From contig CM000151.3 of NCBI GenBank assembly GCA_000004695.1, positions 7,424,001 to 7,488,000 on the forward strand: a stretch of DNA of 64,000 nucleotides, written 5' to 3'. Below are positions 3,326 to 49,842 of this stretch, piece by piece. The DNA comes from Dictyostelium discoideum. Taxonomy: Eukaryota. A program made the translations under genes and the position numbers. The notes beneath the pieces are model-generated. The model saw nothing but the letters and a program-made list of their open reading frames with translations, was not told where the DNA came from and searched no databases. The first letter of the stretch is position 1; the number at the start of each line of letters is the position of its first letter.

Positions 3326-5478
3326 ATGGTATCAGCAACATCAACCAATATTTATCAAACAAATTTTTCAGACTTTGATTCAATTAAAAAATCAATTCAA
3401 TCTCAAGTGTAAGTATTTATTATTTATTTATTTTTAAAAAATAGAAATTTTTATTAATTTTTTTTTTAATTAATAATATAATAATAAAATAATAGACAAT
3501 ATTATTTTAGTGAAGAAAATTTACGTAGAGATATTCATCTTAGATGTAATATGGATGAAGAAGGATGGGTATCAATTCCATTTATTTGTGGATTTAATAG
3601 AATGAGATCATTTGAAAGTTCAACTGTTATTGAAACATTAAAATCATTAAATTCATTAGAATTGGATTTACAAAATAATAGAGTTAGAATATTGGATAAT
3701 AGTAAAAGAAAACTTTGGATTTTAACTCAAGAAATGAAAGATGGATTTTTAGTTGGTATTGAACAACAACAACAAGCTCAATCAAGTGAAGAATCTGGTT
3801 GGGTAACAGTAAAGTCTAAAAAACTTTATAAATTAGAGAATGGTTCTACTTCAAAAGATTCATTATCAAATTTATTGAATCAACATGAAAATGATACTGA
3901 AATCATTAAACAACACAAAACTGAAGAAGGTTTCTTTGATTTAAGTGGTGATGAAGATGATAAACAAGATTTTTTCATAAAAGAAAGAAGAAATTTCGAT
4001 TATAGAAATATTGAACAAGAACAACAAGATTTTGAAAATGAACAACAACAAGAAGATGAAGATGAAGATGATCAACAACAACAACAACAACAAATTGAAG
4101 AAGTTGAAGAGGAAGAACAATTGTTTGGTAGTTATTCTGAAAAATCTGAAGATAATTTTAATGATGATGATCAAGATTATGAAAATAGTGAAGAAGATGA
4201 TGATATTTCAAATAAATTAATCATTGTTACTCAATCACCATTCAGAAAGAATAAAATTAATAGTAAAAAGTATATTAATGCTGATTTGGCAAGTGCAATC
4301 AATGATGGTCTTTATTTCTATGAACAAGATTTAAAAAGAAATAAACAAACAAAATATCAACAATTTAATACTATCATTGTTGAAGAATCAAAACTTTCTA
4401 AGCAATCAATTCAACAAAAATCATCAACTCAACAACAACCACCACCATTACAAAAACAACAACAACCACAACCACAACCACAACCACAACCACAACCACA
4501 ACCACAAAAACAAAAATTACAACAACAACCATCAAATAAATTAAATGATTTGAAATCTCCAACTAGACTCTATTCACCAAAACCAAAGAATACAAGTGGT
4601 AATAAAGTTAATGATGGTAGTACTCCTATTGGTTGGGTTATGGCACCAAATTCTGAACCTCCATCACCAATTTCAAATAGTCCATTGAATGCATCACCAA
4701 ATTCTGTTTCAAATAATAAATCTATTGAAACTAAATCCTCTAATAGTAAACCAATAACTAATAGTAATAATAATAATAATAATAGTTATGCATCAATTGT
4801 TAATTCAAAATCTAATAGTAATAATAGTTTATTATCATCATCAATTAAGTCTAATAATTCATCAATTGATGGTAATGGTGATTTCGAAAAACAACCAAGT
4901 CCATTCCCATACTTTCAACATCCATCATATGAATTACTATCAGAGAATGGATTTGTTCAACATAAATACAACAAATATCGTAGTAAATGTATGAAAGATC
5001 GTGAACGTTTCGGTGTTGGTCAATCAATGGAAATGAATACCTTGTTTAGATTTTGGTCACATTTCCTTCGTTCTCATTTCAACATTAAAATGTATGAAGA
5101 GTTTAAGACCATCGCTTTAGAGGACGCAAAACAAAATTGGAGATATGGTTTAGAATGCCTTTTTAGATTCTATTCCTATGGTTTGGAAAAGAAAATCAAA
5201 TTACTCTTATTGAATGATTTCCAAACATTAACACTTCAAGATTTCAATGAACAAAAACAAATCTATGGTGTTGAAAAGTTTTGGGCTTTCCAAAAGTATG
5301 GTAAAGATAAATCTCCTTATGATTTAAATCCAGAATTAAAACAAATCCTCTCCAAATTTAATTCTGTCGAAGATTTCCGTACTTATGAAAGAGTTAATAA
5401 ACCAATTATCTCTTTAAATCAAATTAAAACTTCATCATCATTGATTTCATCATCACCAAAGGTATCATCATCTTTACC

Positions 5479-5510
<32 letters not shown>

Positions 5511-5758
5511 CCTCATCATCATCATCAAATCATAAATCATCATCACCATCATCATCATCATCATCATTTAGTTCCAACTCTCATTCTACCTCTTTTGGTA
5601 GTAGAAAAAAATCATTTGGTTCAAGTTCGACCACAATGGCTTGGAATACAAGATCAACCATTCAAACTACTCCACATCAATCAAGCAATACCAACAATGC
5701 TAGTGGAGTAGTTGGTTCTTCAAGTGCCAAGACATATTTTGTTAAAAATGGAATGTAA
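3326..5758 (+). CDS. LARP1-like La-related protein, two exons: join(3326..3408, 3511..5758). La motif at the N-terminus, DM15 repeats near the C-terminus.
   Basis: ATG at 3326. GTAAGT donor at 3409 and ...ttttag acceptor ending at 3510 keep the frame (..[37 protein letters not shown] = La motif). The C-terminal block [36 protein letters not shown] matches the DM15/LARP1 signature. Stop TAA at 5756-5758. Confidence 0.75.
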
Positions 5759-6262
5759 GGCTTTTCCAACCTCTTTCCAATCCACTTGGAAAGACTTGAG
5801 TTGGAATCAACAAAAACAACTAAATCTTGATAATATGACAACTAAAATGATGATAAACAAAACACAACCAAATACACACCACACCAAAGATGATACTAAA
5901 AACCAAAATACAAAAACTCACTACCACCAACACCACCAAAAAATAAAAAAAGAAGAAAAACAAAAAAAATATTTGTCTATAAAAATAAAAATAAAAATAA
6001 AAGTTCTGTTCAAAAAAAAAAAAAAAAAAAAACGTTAAAAATAAAATTGTCTTTGAATATTCCTACCTATTTTATTTGTTTCATACTAACACCATTTGTC
6101 ACATTTTAATCAACGAGTAAACGCCAAAAAACAACGGTTTTCTCTAATTATTTAACACTTTTGTTATTGGAAATCGATTCCCACCAACTCTGGAATATTC
6201 CAATTTTAAAAAAAAAATTAACCAAACATGGGTTTTGGCTAAATTTAAAAAAATTTCAAGAT

Positions 6263-6358
6263 GGGGATGTAGCTCATATGGTAGAGCGTATGGTTTGCAT
6301 AAACAGCAACGATAATCAGAGTTCCATAAGGTAAAGGGATCGATACCCTTCTTCTCCA
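6263..6358 (+). tRNA. tRNA-Ala(UGC), copy 1, with a putative ~23-nt intron 3' of anticodon position 37
   Basis: Cloverleaf parts: acceptor GGGGATG/CTTCTCC with a G3:U70 pair (alanine identity element); D arm GCTC-ATATGGTA-GAGC; anticodon stem TATGG/CCATA with loop TTTGCA + 23-nt insert + T; T arm AAGGG-ATCGATA-CCCTT; discriminator A; a T-run follows. The identical 96-nt sequence recurs inverted at 10539-10634. Confidence 0.65.
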
Positions 6359-6387
6359 AAATTTTCTTCATGAAAACGATTATCAAT

Positions 6388-6398
6388 GGTTCGATTCC
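6388..6398 (+). promoter_or_regulatory. External B box (ex-B) of the tRNA-Ala gene, a Pol III TFIIIC site characteristic of Dictyostelium tRNA genes
   Basis: GGTTCGATTCC lies 30 nt downstream of the tRNA 3' end. The same motif sits at the corresponding position of the inverted copy (about 10499-10509). Confidence 0.6.
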
Positions 6399-6399
6399 C

Positions 6400-9300
6400 T
6401 TAAAAGTGTCAATAACCTCACAAGAATCTTGGAAAGGAGACTAGACAGAATATACCTTAACAATAGCATAATCAACTACAGCCAATTATACTTAAGGAAC
6501 CTAATCCCCCCAAAAATTAATGACATACCTCTATCAGATCACAACTTCCTATCAACCACCTTCACTCTACCCAACATACAGATGAACAGGCGCAGATGGA
6601 GATTAAAAAAATCCTCAATCCTCTCAAGCATAATGCTTAAGAAAATAGACTTCCTACTTAACGATTATTCAAGGGAGCTGTCATCCAACCATAACTCTAT
6701 TTCCTTCTCTCAACTCAACAGCTTACTAAACAAAATAAAACAACTATACACAGAATTTCAAAAACAAAATGACTACAACAATAAGGCAAACATCAAAAAT
6801 CTAATCTCCCTACTAGAGACAGAATTTAAAGACCAAGCCTTCGCAACCCTTTCAGCAATAAATGAATCTAAAAAAAGAGAAGAACAACTTAAACAAGAAT
6901 TGAACAACTATTGCGAAGAAACCTCACTCAAGTACATCTCCGCGAGAATCAAGAAAAGACACAATGATTTCACCATCAACGCAGTAAAAGATGCACAAGG
7001 TAGAACAATCAACAAACAGGAATTGATCGAAGAAGAATACGTAAAATATTACTCAAATCTTTATGACTACAAAGAAGATGACGCACCATCTCATTATGAA
7101 ATGTTGGAAAATTGGACAGTGACCAGGGACTCAACATGGGACAACCTTGAAAATTGAATTTCACAACACAAGAGATCCTAGAAGGTATTAAAACAAATTG
7201 AACCCACACAAATCTCCAGGCCCAGATGGAATTCCAAACTTATTCTACATAACACACAAAGAAAAACTAGCTCCAATACTGGCCTCAGCATTCAACGACA
7301 CTTTAAGAAATCCTCATCTAATTAGCAAAAATTACAAAGAAGGCCTCATTATCACGATACCTAAAAAGGGAGACCCCGAACTAATCAAAAACAGAAGACC
7401 AATTACACTGGCTAACTGTATATATAAAATCCACTCAAAACTAATAAACAATAGAATAATCCCAATACTAACGAAAGTGATCAACCACAATCAAAAAGGT
7501 TTCGTACCAGGCAGATTCATTATAGATAATATCATATCAATGAACGAATTAATCAACTATTGTAATGATAAAAGAATTAACGGAATAATTACACTATATG
7601 ATTTCGAAAAAGCTTTTGACTCGATTTCACACGGTTCAATACTCAGATCACTACAACACATCAACATTCCAACCAATATAATCAACCTGATAATGAATCT
7701 ACTCACCAAATCTGAAGCAAGAATTGAAATTAATGGTAGAACTACTATACCCTTTGAGATCAAAAGAGGAGTCAAACAAGGAGATCCACTATCACCCACC
7801 CTGTTCGTCCTTGTAATAGAGGCTTTAGCTAGAAAAATTTTACAAGATGACCGAATTACTGGCCTTCCTCTAAACAACAGCAACCACAGAGAGAAATTCC
7901 AAAGCTTTGCAGACGACTCGGCTTCAATGGTCCCAGACTCTCAACAACTTGAATTAGTACTACAACACTTCAATTCATTTTGCAAAGCCACTTCCTCAAA
8001 ACTAAACATCGACAAATCTTCATCAATTCTTATAGGCAACCCAGACAATACCAACCAAAGAATACCAATATCTACAAATCCAGAAAGATACTTGGGATAC
8101 TTCTTCACAGGCAAAGGGATAACAAGAAAAATGCCAGAAATATTAAACACAATAAGATCATCCTTAGTACTATGGAAAACCACTGACTCAACAATCAAAA
8201 CCAAAACCAACATCCTCAAAGCATTCGCACTCTCTAAATTAACCTACTATTCATATGTAGAGAACTTTAAGGAAGAGGAATTAAACCAAATCAATAAATT
8301 GGTCGAATGGTTTTTATCGGCACCTAACAACAAAAATGCTAGTGGATTTCAAGTTATTAATTTAATGAGAACCAAAAGAGCAAGATACCCACTAAATGTA
8401 GGGGGCTGGAACATTTGGAATATAGAATTGAGACAACTGGCGCAGAAACTTTGGATCATAAACCAGTTCATCCTAGCACTAGAAACCAAACAAACAAACT
8501 CATCTCATCACAAAAGCTGGGAATATCAGATCCAAAAAAACAAATTCACATCCAGATACCTAAAAGAAAACTTAGACGAATGGAACAAAATAAGAATAAA
8601 AAAAGCAATCTTCAACAATAATCTCACATCCATAAAAAACGAAAATGGACGACCACTTTCACTGGCAGAATGGTATACCACAATTCAAGACCAAAATCCA
8701 ACCATCCCTAAAACGGAATTCCAATCATCTCTAAACTTAAGAGGCTACAGCTATAATCAACTCTTCAACAACATACTGAAGATAAAAGACCCTAAAACAA
8801 GAGACACAATGTTTAGATTCCATGCCAGATGCCTTCCAATAAACTACCTTCACAACAAACAATGCCCACTCTGCAAAGAAGATATGAGCAAAGACCCATA
8901 CGGTCACCTGTTCTTCTCATGCAAGAAAACAAAACAATTCATAAAAATAAATAAACTCAAAAATTTCATCTATATTACCACAGGCAAAGGTAAAAACTGG
9001 CACCATACAAGAATTAGGCAAAATAACAATTTCATTAATAGAATAACTCCAAAATTATCACCGATAGCCAAAAAAGATCAAGAAGTGAATGCAGATTACG
9101 CCAACCTCAGATTCCACAAAGAATACTTTGAATGGAACTATAAAGCAATAGACTATGATCTAACTAGATCATTCGCATATAGAAACCTAATGGCCCTTAT
9201 CCTCCACAACATTTGGATTTGGATTTGCAATCAAATATACAGTGAAGATCCTTTAACAGATGAATCACTATCATACAGCTCCCTTCTAAAGAAATGGCAC

Positions 9301-9589
9301 AAATTGGCCACTCTAGAATACATCAAAAAAGCAAAAGATCTGAAAAACTTATCAGCAAAAGACCATAATAACTTCAAAGATCCTAAGATCCTTCTCACTT
9401 CAACGATCAAGCTAAGAAAAACAACAGCTAATTACTATTGTATTCCAGAATCATCTCTCCCAAATATTATATCTTTTGATCAATTCATATGATTAAAATA
9501 ACCCTTCAGCTTAAATGATAAGCCTATAAATAAATATTAAATAAAACTCGTATTAACACAGATGGACATATATCAATCTTGTTAATCTA

Positions 9590-9623
<34 letters not shown>
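6400..9623 (+). mobile_element. TRE3-type tRNA-gene-targeted non-LTR retrotransposon, 5'-truncated. It starts inside the APE domain of ORF2, has a frameshift between the APE end and the RT, and ends in a 3'UTR plus oligo(A).
   Basis: ORF 6429..7157 carries the endonuclease C-terminal motifs (..DRIY..PLSDHNFL). ORF 7198..9492 is a reverse transcriptase (SPGPDGIPNLFY.., ..QGDPLSPTLF.., FADD) plus a C-terminal Cys/His finger (CPLCKEDMSKDPYGHLFFSC). The insertion is immediately 3' of a tRNA gene and its ex-B box, same orientation as the tRNA. Poly(A) runs 9595-9623. Confidence 0.8.
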
Positions 9624-9625
<2 letters not shown>

Positions 9626-10538
9626 AAACTCAACCTTATAAATTGAAAAACTTAACTTAACTGTATCCTCTCAAGTTGAGTGGCGATTGAAATTCAGTCT
9701 TTGAAATGTTTGTGTATGTTTTGTGAATTTCGTCATACTATTCCGCTAATGATCATCCAAAGTTTCTGAAAATGTAGAAACCATGTAAAAAGTAGTCCTG
9801 TTTGAATTTGGAGTTGACTGTTTTTTTAAATATCAGCTGGTATTTTAAATTTAGAATAAAATAAATTCATCAAACGATATTAAATTTGGCAGCATTGATT
9901 CTGGAATTTTATTAGACCAGTGTTTTTCCATTAAACAATAATTAAATGTTTAATTATATTAATTTTAATTTTAAAATAAAAGGAATTTTTATAATTATTA
10001 TTTATTCATTTTAATTATTTTTTTTTTTTTAATGTACTAAATGGATAAATAAAATATTGAAATTGTAGTTAATGAAATAAATTGTTTCAAGAATACTATT
10101 TGGGAGACCCAGATTCTGCAACACAATAAGCTTTGCAAGTTAATTTTCTTAATATATTTTATTAAGGAAATAGTTTGGATCTTTAAAATTGCTTGGATGT
10201 TTTGAAATAGATAGTTTTAAATTGTTTGAATTTTATATATTCATGAGTGTTTATTTTTTTATCCTTTTGTTAAGGAGAGTTCGATATGAAATTATTCATC
10301 TCTAAATGGTCATTCAATATACAGTTGGTTGCAATTCCAAACTCATTTGATATGAATTATTAAGGCCATTATGTTTAATATGAGGTTCGGGATAGGTCAT
10401 AGTTAACAATTTTTTACCCTATTCCGAGTATTCTTTGTGGAATCTAAGATCCTATGGTAACTCATGACCTTATCGATTAAATTCAATCTAATAAATGGAG
10501 AATCGAACCATTGATCACCGTTTTCAGGACAAAAATTT

Positions 10539-10634
10539 TGGAGAAGAAGGGTATCGATCCCTTTACCTTATGGAACTCTGATTATCGTTGCTGTTTATGC
10601 AAACCATACGCTCTACCATATGAGCTACATCCCC
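10539..10634 (-). tRNA. tRNA-Ala(UGC), copy 2, 96 nt identical to copy 1, inverted orientation
   Basis: Exact reverse complement of 6263-6358, with an ex-B-like GGTTCGATTCTCC at about 10497-10510 on the minus strand. Confidence 0.65.
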
Positions 10635-10699
10635 ATCTTGAAATATTTTTAAAATTAGCCAAAAACCATCTTTAGTAAATTTTTTTTTAAAATAAGCCA

Positions 10700-10850
10700 A
10701 AAACGAATTATTCCAGAGTTGGTGGTCGATCTCCAATAACAAAAGTGTTAAATAATTAGAGAAAACCGTTGTTTTTTGGCGTTCCAATACCAAAATTGTT
10801 AAATAATTAGAGAAAACCGTTGTTTTTTTTGCTTGTTCTATTGTGGGTAT
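10700..10850. repeat. Tandem duplication (~55 bp x 2) in the conserved 5' flank of tRNA-Ala copy 2
   Basis: ...gttaaataattagagaaaaccgttgtttttt... occurs twice. The single-copy version is present upstream of copy 1 at about 6120-6180. Confidence 0.7.
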
Positions 10851-11511
10851 CGTATTGATGTGGGTTTGATTTTTTGTCCCAGACCAATAGTATGGCCCCT
10901 GTCTCCTCCCCAAGTAAAAGTGATATAAGCTATTCATATTAAATTTTTATTTGTTTTTTATAATATTTAGTGAGTTTTAAATAAAAAGATTTTAAATTAT
11001 AAAAATAGATTAAATTATTAAATTATAAAATTAAGATTTAAATTAATATGACAAAAGTTATTAAAAATAAATATACGATTAAATCTTTTTTTTTTTTGAA
11101 TTGGATAACGCAATTATTATTTGCTTCTCCTTGAGATGCTAGATCTCATTTTATTTTATTTTTTTTTTTTTTACAGGGTCTCTAAAAGAGGGGTTAGTTT
11201 ACTTTTTTTTTTTTTTTTTTTTTTTTGTTTCGAATTTTGAATTGTATTATTACTTTTGATTAAAACATCTTTTTTGTCCAAACTTTTTTCTAAATCTTTT
11301 TTTATTTTATCGTCTGGTTCGTGATTGATGTTTATGACGTATTTGAATTGTTTTTTTTTTAATTGAGTTTTATCCACAATTTCGCTTATTTTTTGTAGGC
11401 ATTTGTGTTGCTTAATATTTGTGGTGTTGTTTGTGATTTTCATTTTATTTTCCTTCTATTTTTTTTATTTTTAAAAATCTGGAAATTTTCTGATTAACTT
11501 GGGGTTCCCAG

Positions 11512-11670: not shown

Positions 11671-11743
11671 GTTCGGATGGTGTAGTCGGTTATCACGAAT
11701 CCTTAACACGGATTAGGTCGTGGGTTCGATTCCCGCTCTGAAT
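11671..11743 (+). tRNA. tRNA-Val(AAC)
   Basis: Acceptor GTTCGGA/TCTGAAT; D arm GTGT-AGTCGGTTA-TCAC; anticodon arm AATCC-TTAACAC-GGATT (anticodon AAC); T arm GTGGG-TTCGATT-CCCGC; discriminator A; T-run downstream. Confidence 0.8.
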
Positions 11744-11749
11744 ACTCTT

Positions 11750-13461
11750 TTATGAAAAAGTAAAGTGTCGTGGGTTTTTAGTTTTGAGGTTGATGGCATA
11801 CCAAAAACGATAGTAGAATTAATAATGAATCTATTAAAAGAAACAACGAATAAGATCAAGATAAATGACTTCCTGGTGGGACACATTACAGTTAACAGAG
11901 GCACAAAACAAGGAGATCCATTATCACCAACAATATTTGCACTTGTAATGGAAGCACTACTAATTGATATACTTAAAGAAATCGAAATTAAAGGATTTAA
12001 ATTATCAGACCAGAAAAGAATCAAGCTAACAGCATTCGCAGATGATATGTCAACTTTCAACAACTCAGCAGAAGAATTAAAATTAGTATTGGATAAAATC
12101 AACAACTACTGTCTAGGTACATCTTCAAAACTTAATCAAGAGAAAACTGTTATGATATGCATTGGTAATATACCACCAAACCTCCCATTTAAGATTAGTG
12201 AAGCTCCAGAAAGATACTTGGGTCTCAATTTCACGAAAGTGGGCCTCAATTCAAAAATCACATCAATCATCAACTCAATCAAAGATAGCTTAAACAATTG
12301 GAAAAGTCAAGCAACTACAATAAGAGCAAAGATGACAATTGTCAAAACATATGCGCTATCGAGATTATCCTACCATCAATATCTAGACTCACTAAATGAA
12401 TCACACATTACTGAACTAAACAATATCATTAAATGGTTCCTCTTCTCCGCAATTAAAAATACATACACAGAAGAACATAAATATAGAACATTAATGACAA
12501 TGGATAGAGCATACGGTGATTGGAAAGAAGGTGGAATTAAGATGTGGGACTTAGGTATCAGACAAATAGCATTCAAAGTTTGGAACATGAATAGATTATT
12601 ACACATTATCAAGATAAAAGCATGCAACATACTACAAGAATGGTATATGGAACAAATCAGCAACAGCAAATATATATCAATTGGATTAAGAGAGATGGTA
12701 GACAGATGGAAAGATTTTAGAAACAACTTTGCACCACAACACAATAAACTAAAATCACTACCTGATTGTATCAAAGGTCAAAACAAAAAGCCACTTCAAC
12801 TTAAAGAAATCTATAACATGTTAATCACTCACAAATACAAATCAATAAGAAAAACAGATGGACAAAAAAATCTAATTTCAATAAATAACATCAACATACC
12901 ATCCATCTTCCAACATATCAACCACATATCACATCAAAAAGGTAGAAATACACTATTCAGATTTTTCTCAAGGTCACTTCCTGGAATCAACTATGAACGT
13001 AACGTACCATGCAAAATCTGTAACAATATAATCCGTGACCCATACACTCACCTTTTTATAGACTGTATGCAAGTAAAAGAAATAGAAAACATAATAATTT
13101 CAACATTCAACAATCTCTCATTCTTCAAGATCAGAAATTGGGATCTCAATTCACTAGATATTAGCAAAACAAATAAAAAAGAAAGAATCTACCCAAATTT
13201 AATCGGCATAATTATACATCAACTATGGAGAATAATTTGTCACAAACTATTCAATCAAGACGAATCTAAAACTCCACCCTCATTTGATCCAACATTAATT
13301 GAAAAAGAACTAACCAACTTAATTAAAATAGAGAAATTCATTTTAATAAAGAAGATTGAAAGGAATGAAACAATATACAAATTAAATAACAGAGACCAAT
13401 TAATAATCAACTTCAACACATCATGGCATAACCCGAACACTCCAAACCCAATTCCACTATA

Positions 13462-13500
<39 letters not shown>

Positions 13501-13637
13501 AAGTAGTAGTAATCATAATATAACCAAAAATATCAACATATAACAATATAAAAATTTAAAAATTTAAAAATCTAAAAATTTAAAAATGTAATAAAATATA
13601 ACAATACACCGCTTTTAGGTAAAAAAAAAAAAAAAAA
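11750..13637 (+). mobile_element. TRE3-type retrotransposon, copy 2, 5'-truncated within the RT, inserted about 10-20 bp 3' of tRNA-Val
   Basis: ORF 11765..13462 carries RT motifs (..KQGDPLSPTIFALVMEAL.., FADDM) and the C-terminal Cys/His finger. Stop, A-tract, ~110 bp 3'UTR and terminal oligo(A) end at 13637. Confidence 0.75.
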
Positions 13638-14267
13638 AGTTTTGAGGTTGATTAATTCATTGATGTTGATGATGTCGGTGAGATACAACACAGCAATACC
13701 CAAAGTATTCATAAACATCAACAGCATTTCTCACCAAAAAGGTAGAAACACCCTCTTCAGATTCTTCTCAAGATCACTTCCAGGTATCAACCACGAAAGA
13801 GACACCAGATGCAAGATCTGTGGCCACCTATTCAGAGACCCTTATTCTCACCTCTTCACTCTATGCCAAGATATCCTTGATATTGAAAAAACCATCATAT
13901 CAACAGTTAACAAATTATCATTCATCAAAATCCACAGATGGTCAATGGATACCTTAGACATATCAAAATACAACAGAACTGAGAGAATCTTCCCCAATCT
14001 CATAGGAATAATAGCACACCAATTATGGAAGATAATCTGTCACAAATTGTTCAACACTGATGAAAGCAAACCAGAGCCAAAATTCGAACAAAAGGTCATA
14101 GAAACAGAATTACTAAATCTCATCGAAACTGAAAAATTCATCACACTAAAGAAAATCAAACACGACGAAGCAATACTAAAAAACACCAATCAAGATCTTC
14201 ACAAATACAAATTCAACAAAGCCTGGCAAACCCCAGCAGCTCCGAACCCTCTTCCAATTTAAGTAGT

Positions 14268-14326
<59 letters not shown>

Positions 14327-14457
14327 TATAATATAGTTTAAAAAATTTAATACAATTGAATAATAAAAATAAAACCGTTTAACAAACACAGCCGAAAAGA
14401 CACAAGGACATTCCTTGAAGGTCTGATCACAGGTAAAAAAAAAAAAAAAAAATTGAT
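13638..14457 (+). mobile_element. TRE3 fragment 3 (C-terminal ORF2 plus 3'UTR), abutting copy 2 head-to-tail
   Basis: ORF 13642..14262 is homologous to 12900-13462 (ISHQKGRNTLFRFFSRSLPGIN...CKIC...DPY.HLF). A-tract, UTR and oligo(A) run to 14457. It starts with the same 13-mer gttttgaggttga as copy 2. Confidence 0.7.
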
Positions 14458-14499
14458 GTTGATGATGTTGTCTATGATGAATCTGTGGGGTACGAAACC

Positions 14500-15340
14500 A
14501 GTTTGGTTGTTGTTGATGATGAAAGGAAGTATTCTCAGAAGACGTGCATTTATTACTTTTGAGGATCTTGTAATCAGTGTTTAGAAGTGTGATGGGACGA
14601 CGATTTGATATGAGTAAGGGGTTGCCTTTCTTATATATTGTGTGTATAAGACCTTCGGTGAATTCTGTTGTGATGTGGTGAGGGTTTTCTAGTATATCGT
14701 TGAATAATGTAGTGAGAATTGGTTTAACTTGGTTTAAATGATTAATGTAGAATGTATTTGTAACGCCACCTGGACGGGGTGATTTGTTGGAGTTACAGGT
14801 TTTAATTGCAGCTTCAACTTCATCTTGTATAAATGGTGAGTCTAAACCATTCCAATAATCATTTTTAATGATGGGCCATGTGTTTAGCATGTATTGGTGA
14901 GTAATTGGACAACATATTTGTAAGGTATATAGATTTGTGTAGAATTCAACAAACGCATTTTCAATTTGGTCGGGGTCGGATGTAATGATGTTACCATATT
15001 GGATTGATTCAATTTTTGCATCTTTTGATCTTTTGTTTAGTATTGCTGATAGATACTTGCTAGGTATTTCTCCATTTATATGTTTTTTTAATATGTTTGT
15101 GTGGTTTTGATGTAGTTTGTTTTTGTTACATATAATATTGTATTCAGGGATGCATTGTCCTTCAAGATGTTTGAATTTTGCTGCTTTTTCTAATAGTATT
15201 TGTTTTGCACGTTGAGTTTGTTTGTCTTTGTTATATTGATAGTTTTTTAGAGTTTTAATAATTTTAGATTTTACTTTTGACCAATTTGTAAATTGATTGA
15301 TTGATGTGTTATTGTGATAATATTCCACTACCACCAACAC
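14500..15340 (-). mobile_element. TRE3 fragment in inverted orientation (APE end and N-terminal RT region)
   Basis: Minus-strand ORF 14213..15340. Its real part (about 14540-15340) reads ..KSPRPGGVTNTFYINHL..NPHHIT..RRPITLLNTDYKILK, parallel to copy 1 residues SPGPDGIPNLFY..NRRPITLANCIYKIHS. The 3' portion of the listed ORF is junk read through neighbouring A/T tracts. Confidence 0.6.
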
Positions 15341-15479
15341 TCAAAGAAATCTACTCGACAATACTCAACAATCACAATGTAAATCAAAGACTATAAAGGC
15401 AAGAAATATACAGATCTACTCCTTCGCACCAACAATCAATACAACTATTATGGAAATACACATGCACCAACTATTTGTC

Positions 15480-15855
15480 AAAATTCAAAAATTAAAAGAT
15501 CCATAAGGCCGTGATACAATGCAAAGATTCCATGCTAGATGTCTTCCAATTAATCATCTACACAACAAAGTTTGCCCCATTTGCAACAATGAAATGAATA
15601 ATGATCCCTATGGCCATTTGTTTTTCAATTGTCAGTACACAATCAATTTCATAAACCATGACAAATTAAAATATTTTATATATAAAAATTGCAATGGAAA
15701 CAAAAACTGGTCATTAACAAAAAACAAAACAACAAAATTATCAAATTTTAGAGTATTAATTTATATAAAAAAAACTTTTGTTTTAAAAGTCGATTATTAA
15801 AAAAAAAAAAAAACATAAATGATTATACCTTGGAAAAAAAAAAAATAAAAAAAAG
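15480..15855 (+). mobile_element. TRE3 3' terminal fragment (Cys/His finger, UTR, oligo-A)
   Basis: ORF 15519..15800: FHARCLPINHLHNKVCPICNNEMNNDPYGHLFFNC, homologous to the ORF2 C-terminus of copy 1, followed by A-rich tails. Confidence 0.6.
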
Positions 15856-15873
15856 ATGTACAAATCTATGGTT

Positions 15874-18800
15874 TTATTTTAAAGTGGAGGGGAAATAATT
15901 TGTTCTTTGATTGGTAACAACGGCAATCAAATTTTCATTGACACCTGATGTGGATTTTGAAATTGCACAAGTTAAGAAATGACAAAATTTACATTTAAAT
16001 AAATTCCAATCATTGTTTTGTTGTATGTTTTGATTTTGCTGTTGTTGTTGTTGTTGCTTTGATTTACTATTATTTGAATTATTATTATTATTATTATTAA
16101 TATTATTACTGTTATTATTATAAACAATTTCAATTGAAGATCTTTCATAATCACCAACAACATTAATAATATTAGTATAACCCCAAGCTAAATAATTTAA
16201 ATTATTATATCCATGAAGTTTTTTCATATCACCTAAAAAGTTTGAACAACCGATTATATGATTTGGACAATCCAAATCAGAGCCAGGAGTGCAACAACAT
16301 TTTTTTGGGTTTGAGTATTTTCTATTATCGAATGGAGTTAACAAAGTGAAAGAACAAGCACCACAAAGACATTGAAAAAGGGTTGAATTTGTTTCACCAC
16401 CTCCCCATTCAGAGAGACCTTTAAAGTTTCTTCTTTGTTTACCCCAACGACAAAGTTGTTCAACGAAACCAGTATTTGGAGAGATAATGTAACGACAATC
16501 TCTAACGAGAATGAATGCTTCAAAATAACTAATGGAACGTGAATCCATAAAGTAACCAATTGCCAAGGCAGATGAACGAGAAACACCTTTATCAGAGCAA
16601 ATTAAAACTTTACCATGATGAACGATAGCATCACGAATGAAATCAAAAGCCAATGATAATGATTGAGTGATATCTTGATGAGGTTGGTCATGAAGTTGTA
16701 AATGAAGATACTCGAAATGGTCTGGGAAAGCATTTGGAGAACCAGTGCAATTGATAATATGAGTGATTTGATATTCATTGATTAACATGTTTTTATTCAT
16801 TGAGGGATTAAAAGAGGAGATATACATAAACGAGGCAACTTTTGATGGTCTATCCATATAGAAACGATGTTCAGGAAACTCTGCAGCTTCATAGGGCATT
16901 TCCAAAGTTGATTTATCTCCATCTACCATTAGACTACCCACTTTGATTGGATTATTAGCATTGTAACTATGTGGCAAGAAACGACCTGGAGTATAGTGAC
17001 CAGTGAATTTAATACTCTTTGCCTTATAGCTTGTACCATCACCACCATTATAGTATTGTTTTGGTTTCTCGACGGTATTCATTTGATTTGACATATGACC
17101 ATCTAATTTCTTTTTCAATTGTTCCCATTGTGATAGGATGGTTGGTTTAATTGCAATGAATTTAGTTAACAAATCTCTTAGAGTTGGACGATAGAAAGGA
17201 TCACGAATGAATACATAATCCAAATAATCTAAAATGGCAGGAATATTTGCAACCTTTGATTTTCTTTCGGGTGTAATAAGTTCTTGACCAGGTTGAGTGA
17301 CACGAATAAAGAATTTAACCCAATCATCGTCGTAAAAGAGAAAATCACCAGTTAACAATTCATAGAAAAGACAACCCAATGACCAAACATCACTTGCAGT
17401 ATTTGAACCAACTTTTTTACGTCTATCAAAATTTTCACGAGTCTTTTGAGAAGCGTATGCAATTGTGAGCATTTCTGGTGATTTTATAAACTCGGTACCA
17501 CGATTTCTAGTTGTATAACCTTCTACGTCTTGAGTGTAAACTTTAGCTTCACCCCAATCGGCTAAACAAACTGCAAAGTTTGGATCATTGGTTGGTTGAT
17601 TCCAAAAGTCCTCTTCTATGGTACCTTTTTTCAATGGATGTACCAAAAAGTTATCACATTTAATATCGAAATGATTGATTTTATGATCACCTAAAAATTG
17701 AACACTTTGAAGTACATTGGTAAATATATTTAAAAGTAGTGGTAATAATTCTAAAAATGGTAAAGTTTGTTTTAATCTCCACTCTTTTAGACTACATTTA
17801 TAAGATTTCATTACTATCCAATAGTTTTCACCATCGACACCATAATCAAACATATGACAACCTCTTGAATCACTTCTAAATGTATCCATAATTAAAATCT
17901 CTGTGAAAATATCATAAAGTACACAACGGTCATGAATTGTTTTTGGAACAGGCATTAGTTTTACAGCGATTTCCAAACCTTCATCATTACCCAATGTACC
18001 TTTGTACACTGTACCATAGGCACCCTTTGCAACACGTTTTAAATCTTTAAAAAGATTGGAATGATATAGTCTACTAAAGAGTAACTTTAAAATTCTAAAA
18101 TGATTTGGACCCATTTCATGAGTTCTCTTTGTTAACTCTGGTATGATCTTCTCATTATCTTGATGATTAATATGTAAATGAAGAATGAAAGGTACATTCA
18201 ATTTCTTTGCAACAATTGGGAATTGATCGGAATAAAGATGTTCAAGAGTTTGGTTTGAATTTAATAATAAACTGAAAATTAATTGAAGTAATGAAATATG
18301 TAAATCCCTATCATGATAGAGTTTACGATTATTTCTCTCCAATTGATAACGTTGATTTTCATTGAAAATTTCATTTTCTGTTGGTTCAATCATTTGTTCA
18401 CTATCACGATCAGATGGTGTTAACGATTGTGATGGATTATCCAATACCAATTGAAATTTAGGATCTTGTGGATCAATCTTTTGTTCAATTGATGATAATA
18501 CACCAGTACCAGCTTGTTTAGTATCTTCTTCTGATCTAATTTTAATTGCTGGTAATACTAATTTTGGTATTAAAATTGGTGGTTTTGAACTTGAAATATT
18601 AATTGGACTATTTGATAATTTTGGTAAATTTATTTCATTGTTGTTGGAAGCAATAGTATTATTACTATTATTTATTGGTGGTGGTGTTGTTGTAGTTGTT
18701 GTTGTTGTTGTTGAACCTCCTTTACTTATTGATCCTAAATTTAATGATTTAATTATTGGTTTTGATATTGGTTGGTTTGGTTGTGATGGTGGTACAGTTT

Positions 18801-49727: not shown

Positions 49728-49801
49728 GGGACTATAGTTTAGTTGGATATAACGACCGGCTACGAACCGGTAGGTCTCAGGTTCGACCCCTGATGGTCTC
49801 G
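49728..49801 (+). tRNA. tRNA-Arg(ACG)
   Basis: Acceptor GGGACTA/TGGTCTC (two G-U pairs); D arm; anticodon arm ACCGG-CTACGAA-CCGGT (anticodon ACG); T arm TCAGG-TTCGACC-CCTGA; discriminator G; followed by T7 (Pol III terminator); ex-B-like GGTTCAATTCC at 49832-49842. Confidence 0.8.
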
Positions 49802-49831: not shown

Positions 49832-49842
49832 GGTTCAATTCC
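49832..49842 (+). promoter_or_regulatory. External B box downstream of tRNA-Arg
   Basis: GGTTCAATTCC lies 31 nt 3' of the tRNA. Same arrangement as at the tRNA-Ala genes. Confidence 0.5.

Follow-up and report, generated by a model that had tools for sequence, protein, structure and literature searches.

The Dictyostelium discoideum genome is known for tRNA genes that occur in pairs sharing an anticodon, as described in a passage of PMC8163159 that cites the 2005 genome paper. The B-box consensus of tRNA genes is GTTCRAnYC, and an ex-B box lies ~41 bp downstream of the gene (PMC3159450) at 66-80% of tRNA genes (PMC3159450, PMC5911963). TRE3 retrotransposons insert 40-150 bp downstream of tRNA genes, sharing their orientation, and can use the ex-B box as a target (PMC5911963), and 61% of D. 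discoideum tRNA genes bear at least one TRE element (PMC5006619). Here we describe a locus at which these features coincide. In a 64-kb D. discoideum window (the whole stretch of DNA analysed, in whose coordinates all positions are given unless a related locus, L001 to L004, is named), two identical tRNA-Ala(UGC) genes lie tail to tail around a spacer filled largely with TRE3 sequence. The pair is probably the product of a lineage-specific local inverted duplication of a functional gene, both copies of which later served as TRE3 landing pads.

The pair resembles the published paired tRNA genes in its shared anticodon, its 100% identity and its separation of a few kb (the criterion is ~20 kb), and there is no essential difference. 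What is added here is the extent of the duplicated unit (at least from -143 to the ex-B box) and the lineage specificity of the second copy. The main retrotransposon in the spacer, element A, is like published TRE3 copies in its reverse transcriptase domain, poly(A) tail, orientation relative to the tRNA gene and start 52 bp past it, and the stacking of several insertions at one gene is also as described (PMC5911963, PMC5006619, PMC3159450). It differs in having no target-site duplication, whereas an intact relative at locus L001 has a perfect 16-bp one. The Ty3 and Ty1 elements of Saccharomyces cerevisiae likewise use the RNA polymerase III (Pol III) complex on tRNA genes as a safe landing site, but they are long terminal repeat (LTR) elements that insert upstream, whereas TRE3 is a non-LTR element that inserts downstream (PMC5911963).

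The locus is a regular example of three published features, namely paired tRNA genes, ex-B boxes and TRE3 targeting, and in this respect it is already known biology. Given how many tRNA genes carry a TRE element, the arrangement is expected. Two defining features are missing, a consensus internal B box and a target duplication around element A, and neither counts against membership in these classes. The residue is comparative: four related species show, at one syntenic locus, four arrangements of the second tRNA-Ala copy. These differences bear on the origin of paired tRNA genes and on whether tRNA genes act as hot spots of rearrangement in a compact genome, and a pair that surrounds an inverted block in D. 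dimigraforme is a modest lead.

The tRNA-Ala(UGC) genes and the repeated unit

The Rfam tRNA model (RF00005) detects four tRNA genes in the window, two of which form the pair: copy 1 at 6263-6358 (+) and copy 2 at 10539-10634 (-), tail to tail, with 4180 bp between the gene ends. Each scores 49.1 bits over the full model (positions 1-71), compared with a gathering score of 29, and the two gene sequences are identical at 96/96 nt. With introns allowed (-i), ARAGORN calls both copies tRNA-Ala, with anticodon tgc and a 23-nt intron; its default (bacterial) mode, in which introns are disallowed, overlooks both genes. The anticodon of copy 1 is at 6296-6298 (+) and its intron at 6300-6322 (+), and the intron of copy 2 is at 10597-10575 (-). 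The intron fits the canonical 37/38 position. ARAGORN puts it one base later (38/39), and the two placements are equivalent because T flanks either side. A first-pass annotation of the window had described two identical 96-nt tRNA-Ala(UGC) genes on opposite strands with an intron in the canonical position, and isotype, anticodon, cloverleaf, intron and identity are all borne out.

The alanine identity pair G3:U70 is present (G at 6265 and T at 6355, read from the sequence). The T arm is unusual: T at tRNA position 54 is nearly universal, and here the arm reads GATCGATAC (6334-6350; 10563-10547), with the loop ATCGATA and A at position 54. The acceptor stem contains a U6-U67 mismatch, and the internal B box departs from the consensus GTTCRANYC by two mismatches. 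All three peculiarities are invariant in seven copies from four Dictyostelium species, so the off-consensus B box is a property of tRNA-Ala(UGC) and not a sign of decay. Minimum-free-energy folding of the 96-nt precursor gives z = -0.3; the covariance model is the relevant test here. Both copies are predicted to be functional nuclear genes that are transcribed by Pol III and spliced to remove the 23-nt intron.

Directly after each gene, AAA precedes a run of T. Pol III terminates at such runs, and the T4 run at 6362-6365 (+) is the probable terminator of copy 1; the run past copy 2 is T5, at 10535-10531 (-). Beyond these runs, 29 nt past the gene ends, are the ex-B boxes, GGTTCGATTCC at 6388-6398 (+) for copy 1 and GGTTCGATTCT at 10509-10499 (-) for copy 2. 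Both contain the core consensus match GTTCGATTC at +31. The motif GTTCRAnYC alone is not enriched in the window (seven matches vs 5.8 expected). Five of the seven matches are tRNA-linked, comprising three ex-B boxes at +31/+32 (tRNA-Ala copies 1 and 2 and tRNA-Arg) and two internal B boxes (tRNA-Val and tRNA-Arg). The ex-B box of tRNA-Arg(ACG) (49728-49801) is GTTCAATTC at 49833-49841, an offset like that of the tRNA-Ala genes. Because the internal B box of tRNA-Ala(UGC) is off-consensus, TFIIIC probably binds this gene in good part through its consensus ex-B box.

The similarity between the copies is not confined to the genes. BLAST aligns 6120-6397 to 10783-10500 in inverted orientation with 89.9% identity over 287 columns (E 3e-109), which answers whether the flank similarity could be AT-rich noise: it is real. 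By segment, 87/103 columns are identical from -143 to -51 (with two substitutions and three indels), 44/50 from -50 to -1, 24/29 from +1 to +29 past the gene, and 10/11 in the ex-B box; past the ex-B box, segment alignment found no similarity between the copies. Reading outward from the genes, the nearest upstream difference is at -12, and the trailers diverge only past the T run. Similarity ends at 6397, within the last bases of the ex-B box, and the next 12 nt before 6410 are unshared. The end point therefore falls inside the box and not ~10 bp past it, as first proposed.

Upstream, the common flank has a sharp 5' edge and measures 143 bp at copy 1 (6120-6262, +; found by BLAST, repeat families and segment alignment) and 149 bp at copy 2. 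The 5' flank of copy 2 spans 10635-10828 (-), of which 10635-10783 is homologous to 6262-6120 and 10782-10828 is an extra tandem unit. Conservation of the 5' flank had been noted earlier at ~170 bp; the conservation stands, and the extent is revised to 143/149 bp plus one additional 51-bp unit at copy 2. That 51-nt unit, AACGCCAAAAAACAACGGTTTTCTCTAATTATTTAACACTTTTGTTATTGGA, occurs once at copy 1 (~6122-6172) and twice in tandem at copy 2 (10732-10828). It is the best-conserved part of the flank, with 48 nt perfectly matched (6124-6171 = 10779-10732). Neither the rest of the 64-kb window nor the ~77 kb of related loci (L001-L004), where nine other tRNA genes lie, contains a further copy of the 6120-6262 flank.

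The flanks carry 13 substitutions in 168 aligned positions (7.7%), vs none in the 96-nt gene. At the flank rate, the chance of no change is ~4e-4 for 96 nt, which indicates that the exons are constrained in both copies. For the 23-nt intron alone it is ~0.16, and since identity of the intron is expected by chance at about that frequency (~16%), it needs no special explanation. Hairpin formation across the 4.1-kb spacer is unlikely, given arms that are only 90% alike.

TRE3 insertions between the genes

Element A, a TRE3 non-LTR retrotransposon, occupies 6410-9623 (+) in the orientation of copy 1. It was recognized from protein and nucleotide matches and from an RVT_1 domain (117.8 bits) in its second open reading frame (ORF2). 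The open reading frame is 99% identical to D. discoideum proteins, all of which are named 'hypothetical protein' in the database, and full-length relatives encode an endonuclease domain (PF03372). Over 3214 nt, element A is 98.6% identical to L001 7877-11086. It is 5'-truncated by ~2 kb, its ORF2 is frameshifted near 7157-7223, and it ends in a poly(A) tail of A29 (9595-9623). By size and abundance it probably belongs to the subfamily TRE3-A.

The element starts 52 bp past copy 1 and 11 nt past the ex-B box, at the junction 6409|6410, which agrees with the earlier placement of a TRE3 integration next to this box. No target-site duplication was found in a comparison of the left (GATTCCCTTAAAAGTGT) and right (GAAAACTCAACCTTAT) flanks. 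By comparison, the full-length copy at L001 (5830-11086, 5.26 kb) has the perfect 16-bp duplication ATTAAGAAATCCATGT; it starts 68 bp past tRNA-Thr(AGU) and 34 bp past the ex-B box of that gene. The missing duplication points to a deletion or rearrangement at the site, and does not speak against the TRE3 identity of element A.

A single TRE3 had been annotated between the genes, and this proved too few, as the spacer holds four TRE3-derived pieces. The other three lie on the strand of copy 2. Fragment Y (9642-9752, -) is a TRE3-like internal fragment found by tblastn that corresponds to ORF2 residues 783-819 of P0001; it is 77% identical to P0008 (E 2.5e-10 against a 1.1-kb target), is separated by ~18 nt from the element A tail and has no 3' part of its own. 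Fragment X2 (9821-10017, -; boundaries approximate) is a TRE3-like 3' end. It holds the C-terminal part of ORF2 with its stop (9907-9855), followed by a short A7 tail (9828-9822), and is 79% identical over 53 nt to element A at 9442-9494. Fragment X1 (10018 to ~10490, -), also a TRE3-like 3' fragment, is the nearest insertion behind copy 2. It has an A13 tail, read as a T run at 10018-10030, and its 5' boundary is at most 49 nt from the ex-B box. Its 10448-10285 matches element A at 9106-9275 (69%, E 1e-12), and its 10128-10069 matches 9436-9496 (76%).

All four pieces are oriented as the nearer tRNA gene. Fragments Y, X2 and X1 are ordered as if they had inserted successively by the ex-B box of copy 2, with the newest nearest the gene. 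Between the two ex-B boxes the DNA is mostly recognisable retrotransposon, with two short unassigned stretches at 9624-9641 and 9753-9820. Comparison with the downstream flanks of D. citrinum and D. firmibasis identified no original spacer DNA; only a conserved landmark outside the spacer, at 11090-11197, matches.

Sibling loci and the origin of the pair

The same locus was located in other species through orthologues of a LARP1-like gene (3551-5758) that lies just upstream of copy 1. A protein search with this open reading frame gave no D. discoideum match, and the best match was 79% in D. citrinum; neither the exact frame nor the AX4 gene model P0002 is on record; the real gene model probably has an upstream exon. 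In all four species considered here, a tRNA-Ala(UGC) gene on the plus strand follows the LARP1-like gene, at a distance of ~0.5 kb in D. discoideum, ~0.8 kb in D. citrinum (L002), ~1.15 kb in D. dimigraforme (L003) and ~0.64 kb in D. firmibasis (L004). D. purpureum has no tRNA gene at the locus. The second copy is what varies. In D. discoideum it is inverted and downstream; in D. citrinum it is direct (+), 6.5 kb further on; in D. dimigraforme it is inverted (-) and upstream of LARP1; and in D. firmibasis there is none within 10 kb downstream. The D. citrinum second copy lies beyond the conserved landmark, which in D. discoideum is on the other side of copy 2.

Aligned across the four species, the exons are identical in 7/7 copies. 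Two intron sites vary, and every variant is confined to a single species, whose two copies share it; in D. discoideum the lineage-specific base is G at 6321, in both copies. An ex-B box occurs ~30 nt past the gene in all seven copies, although the box of D. citrinum copy a has been displaced by an insertion. Among the seven, only the two D. discoideum copies have the long 5' flank. The divergence of this flank within the pair (~8% substitutions) is lower than the nucleotide divergence of the LARP1 region between species (14-19%).

These observations support a recent inverted duplication, as the second copy is elsewhere or absent in the siblings and the long flank is common to the D. discoideum pair only. 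An inverted duplication of recent date was one of the origins proposed in the first-pass annotation, and the sibling loci and the confinement of the flank now back it. Copy 1 would be the ancestral gene, since it stands ~0.5 kb downstream of the LARP1-like gene much as its siblings do, and copy 2 would have arisen from it within the D. discoideum lineage, through an inverted duplication that was local and took place at the DNA level. The duplicated unit would have been ~290-340 bp long, taking in at least 143 bp of 5' flank, the gene, its T-run terminator and the ex-B box, so that both copies would have retained what TFIIIC needs. TRE3 elements would then have integrated just past the ex-B boxes in the orientation of each tRNA gene: once, recently, behind copy 1, and earlier behind copy 2, where at least two or three insertions are stacked. 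Because fragment Y lacks its 3' part and element A its target duplication, the DNA that originally separated the genes was probably lost when element A inserted, or in a later event.

Several points weigh against this account. Retrotransposon insertions hide the 3' edge of the duplicated unit at both copies. The 5' flank of copy 1 is unalignable with the orthologous flanks, so that its ancestral status is judged from position. The flank appears at the pair alone, in a search that spanned the window and the related loci. The activity of each copy is predicted from conservation and from TRE3 targeting. A six-frame pseudo-protein query returned no other D. discoideum tRNA-Ala(UGC) locus, nor did two metagenome exon scans.

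Two other routes by which the unit might have been copied were rejected. The unit cannot be a retro-copy of a Pol III transcript, as it includes 143 bp upstream of the gene and an ex-B box beyond the terminator. Nor does a 5' transduction by TRE3 match the data, as different elements lie behind the two copies and neither unit has a suitably oriented target tRNA gene beside it.

A different origin would make the pair the footprint of an inversion. Drosophila inversions flanked by inverted duplications are accounted for by a staggered-break model, and in yeast tRNA genes are rearrangement breakpoints. The pair could similarly have been left by a small staggered-break inversion that copied breakpoint sequence in inverted orientation, or the inverted repeat itself could have mediated inversions. 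The geometry fits: as in the staggered-break cases, a short unique segment is repeated in inverted orientation at the ends of a longer one, the copies are tail to tail, and the similarity has a sharp 5' edge. Copy 2 also lies between copy 1 and the landmark at 11090-11197, which keeps its orientation.

The D. dimigraforme locus extends the comparison. There, within L003 8628-18246, tRNA-Ala genes at 8628-8723 (-) and 13639-13734 (+) bracket LARP1, and a gene that precedes LARP1 in the other three species has its orthologue (83%) downstream, on the opposite strand, at 15040-17715. With this neighbour on the other side, the block of LARP1 plus tRNA-Ala is inverted and has one member of the inverted tRNA-Ala pair at either end. 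The arrangement is suggestive of recombination between inverted copies or of a staggered-break inversion, and in that species the intervening segment is indeed inverted. A simple inversion was rejected, as the genes on the far side do not correspond to the window genes at 25.6-29.4 kb.

For the D. discoideum pair we nevertheless consider an inversion origin unlikely. No inversion can be demonstrated in the window, where no original spacer DNA is identifiable and the orientation of the spacer is thus unreadable. The model does not produce the direct pair of D. citrinum, and the D. dimigraforme locus differs further on its far side. A broader version, in which inverted tRNA pairs in Dictyostelium drive, or arise as by-products of, small inversions initiated at Pol III genes, would make the window pair and the D. 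dimigraforme pair outcomes of one recurrent process, which would also have generated the many tRNA pairs in the genome. The breaks could come from stalled replication or from nicks made by the TRE3 endonuclease just past the ex-B box. We give this generalization little credence at present.

Gene conversion between old paralogues, rather than a young duplication, could also have kept the two genes identical. Such concerted evolution would suit a gene and intron that are 100% identical while the adjacent flanks differ by ~8-17%, and an intron variant that both copies of a species share; the 48 nt that match perfectly in the distal 5' flank could mark a tract of conversion. However, old paralogues are hard to reconcile with sibling second copies at non-orthologous positions and in other orientations, or with the lack of one within 10 kb downstream in D. 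firmibasis. Purifying selection accounts for the 73 exon positions and chance suffices for the intron, and conversion confined to the gene would not be expected to leave continuous similarity across 143 bp of non-coding 5' flank. The data can be explained without conversion, which we regard as decidedly improbable.

Mobile elements that target the upstream side of tRNA genes suggest another source of the shared flank, namely fragments of one element inserted independently upstream of two tRNA-Ala genes. TRE5 and DGLT-A insert at fixed distances upstream of tRNA genes (PMC5911963, PMC5633606), and a 141-bp repeat in D. citrinum abuts both tRNA-Ala genes at -8 to -12 and recurs near tRNA-Val. 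In the D. discoideum pair, however, the similarity is unbroken from -143 through the gene into the 3' flank, with no break at -13 to -33 or at ~-48. The absence of other flank copies from the window and from the related loci with their nine other tRNA genes, and of any retrotransposon protein similarity upstream of either copy, likewise makes this origin very improbable. Finally, a nest of retrotransposon fragments is hard to assemble, yet an assembly artefact can be dismissed almost entirely, as the arms differ by 13 substitutions, several indels and a 51-bp tandem unit and join different unique outer sequences, whereas collapsed or duplicated assemblies give identical arms.

Other elements at the syntenic loci

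The conserved non-coding landmark at 11090-11197 is 79% identical over 108 nt to D. citrinum L002 19195-19294. It contains a pyrimidine tract ending in AG, gives no Rfam hit at E <= 1, and may represent a small exon or an RNA that lacks annotation.

The insertion that displaces the ex-B box in D. citrinum is a 5.7-kb Ty3/gypsy chromovirus (L002 13331-19012), which lies 26 bp past the tRNA-Ala gene, between the gene and the ex-B box. It is flanked by the 4-bp repeat CCAT and has LTRs of 99.6% identity. It encodes a gag-like protein (with a weak zf-CCHC match, 21.1 bits) and a pol protein with reverse transcriptase, RNase H, integrase and chromodomain, and it behaves like published Skipper-2 elements.

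The D. citrinum repeat of ~141 bp (L002 12811-13198, 19607-19755 and 20970-21271) lies next to each of the tRNA-Ala genes, 8-12 bp upstream, with its orientation reversed between the two, and one copy is followed by a B-box-like tRNA remnant (L002 12960-12990). It recurs near tRNA-Val and probably represents a solo LTR or a small tRNA-gene-targeting mobile element.

In the window, at least four TRE3-type fragments, of different subfamilies and on both strands, form a nest behind tRNA-Val(AAC) (gene at 11671-11745; gene and nest together 11671-15776). Those at 11795-13459, 13657-14259 and 15313-15776 are on the plus strand and that at 14482-15316 is on the minus strand. An ex-B box is absent between the end of this gene and the first TRE3 element. 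Relative to LARP1, the strand of the D. firmibasis tRNA-Val(AAC) gene (L004 20464-20537) is opposite to that in D. discoideum and D. citrinum, which suggests another rearrangement in the neighbourhood.

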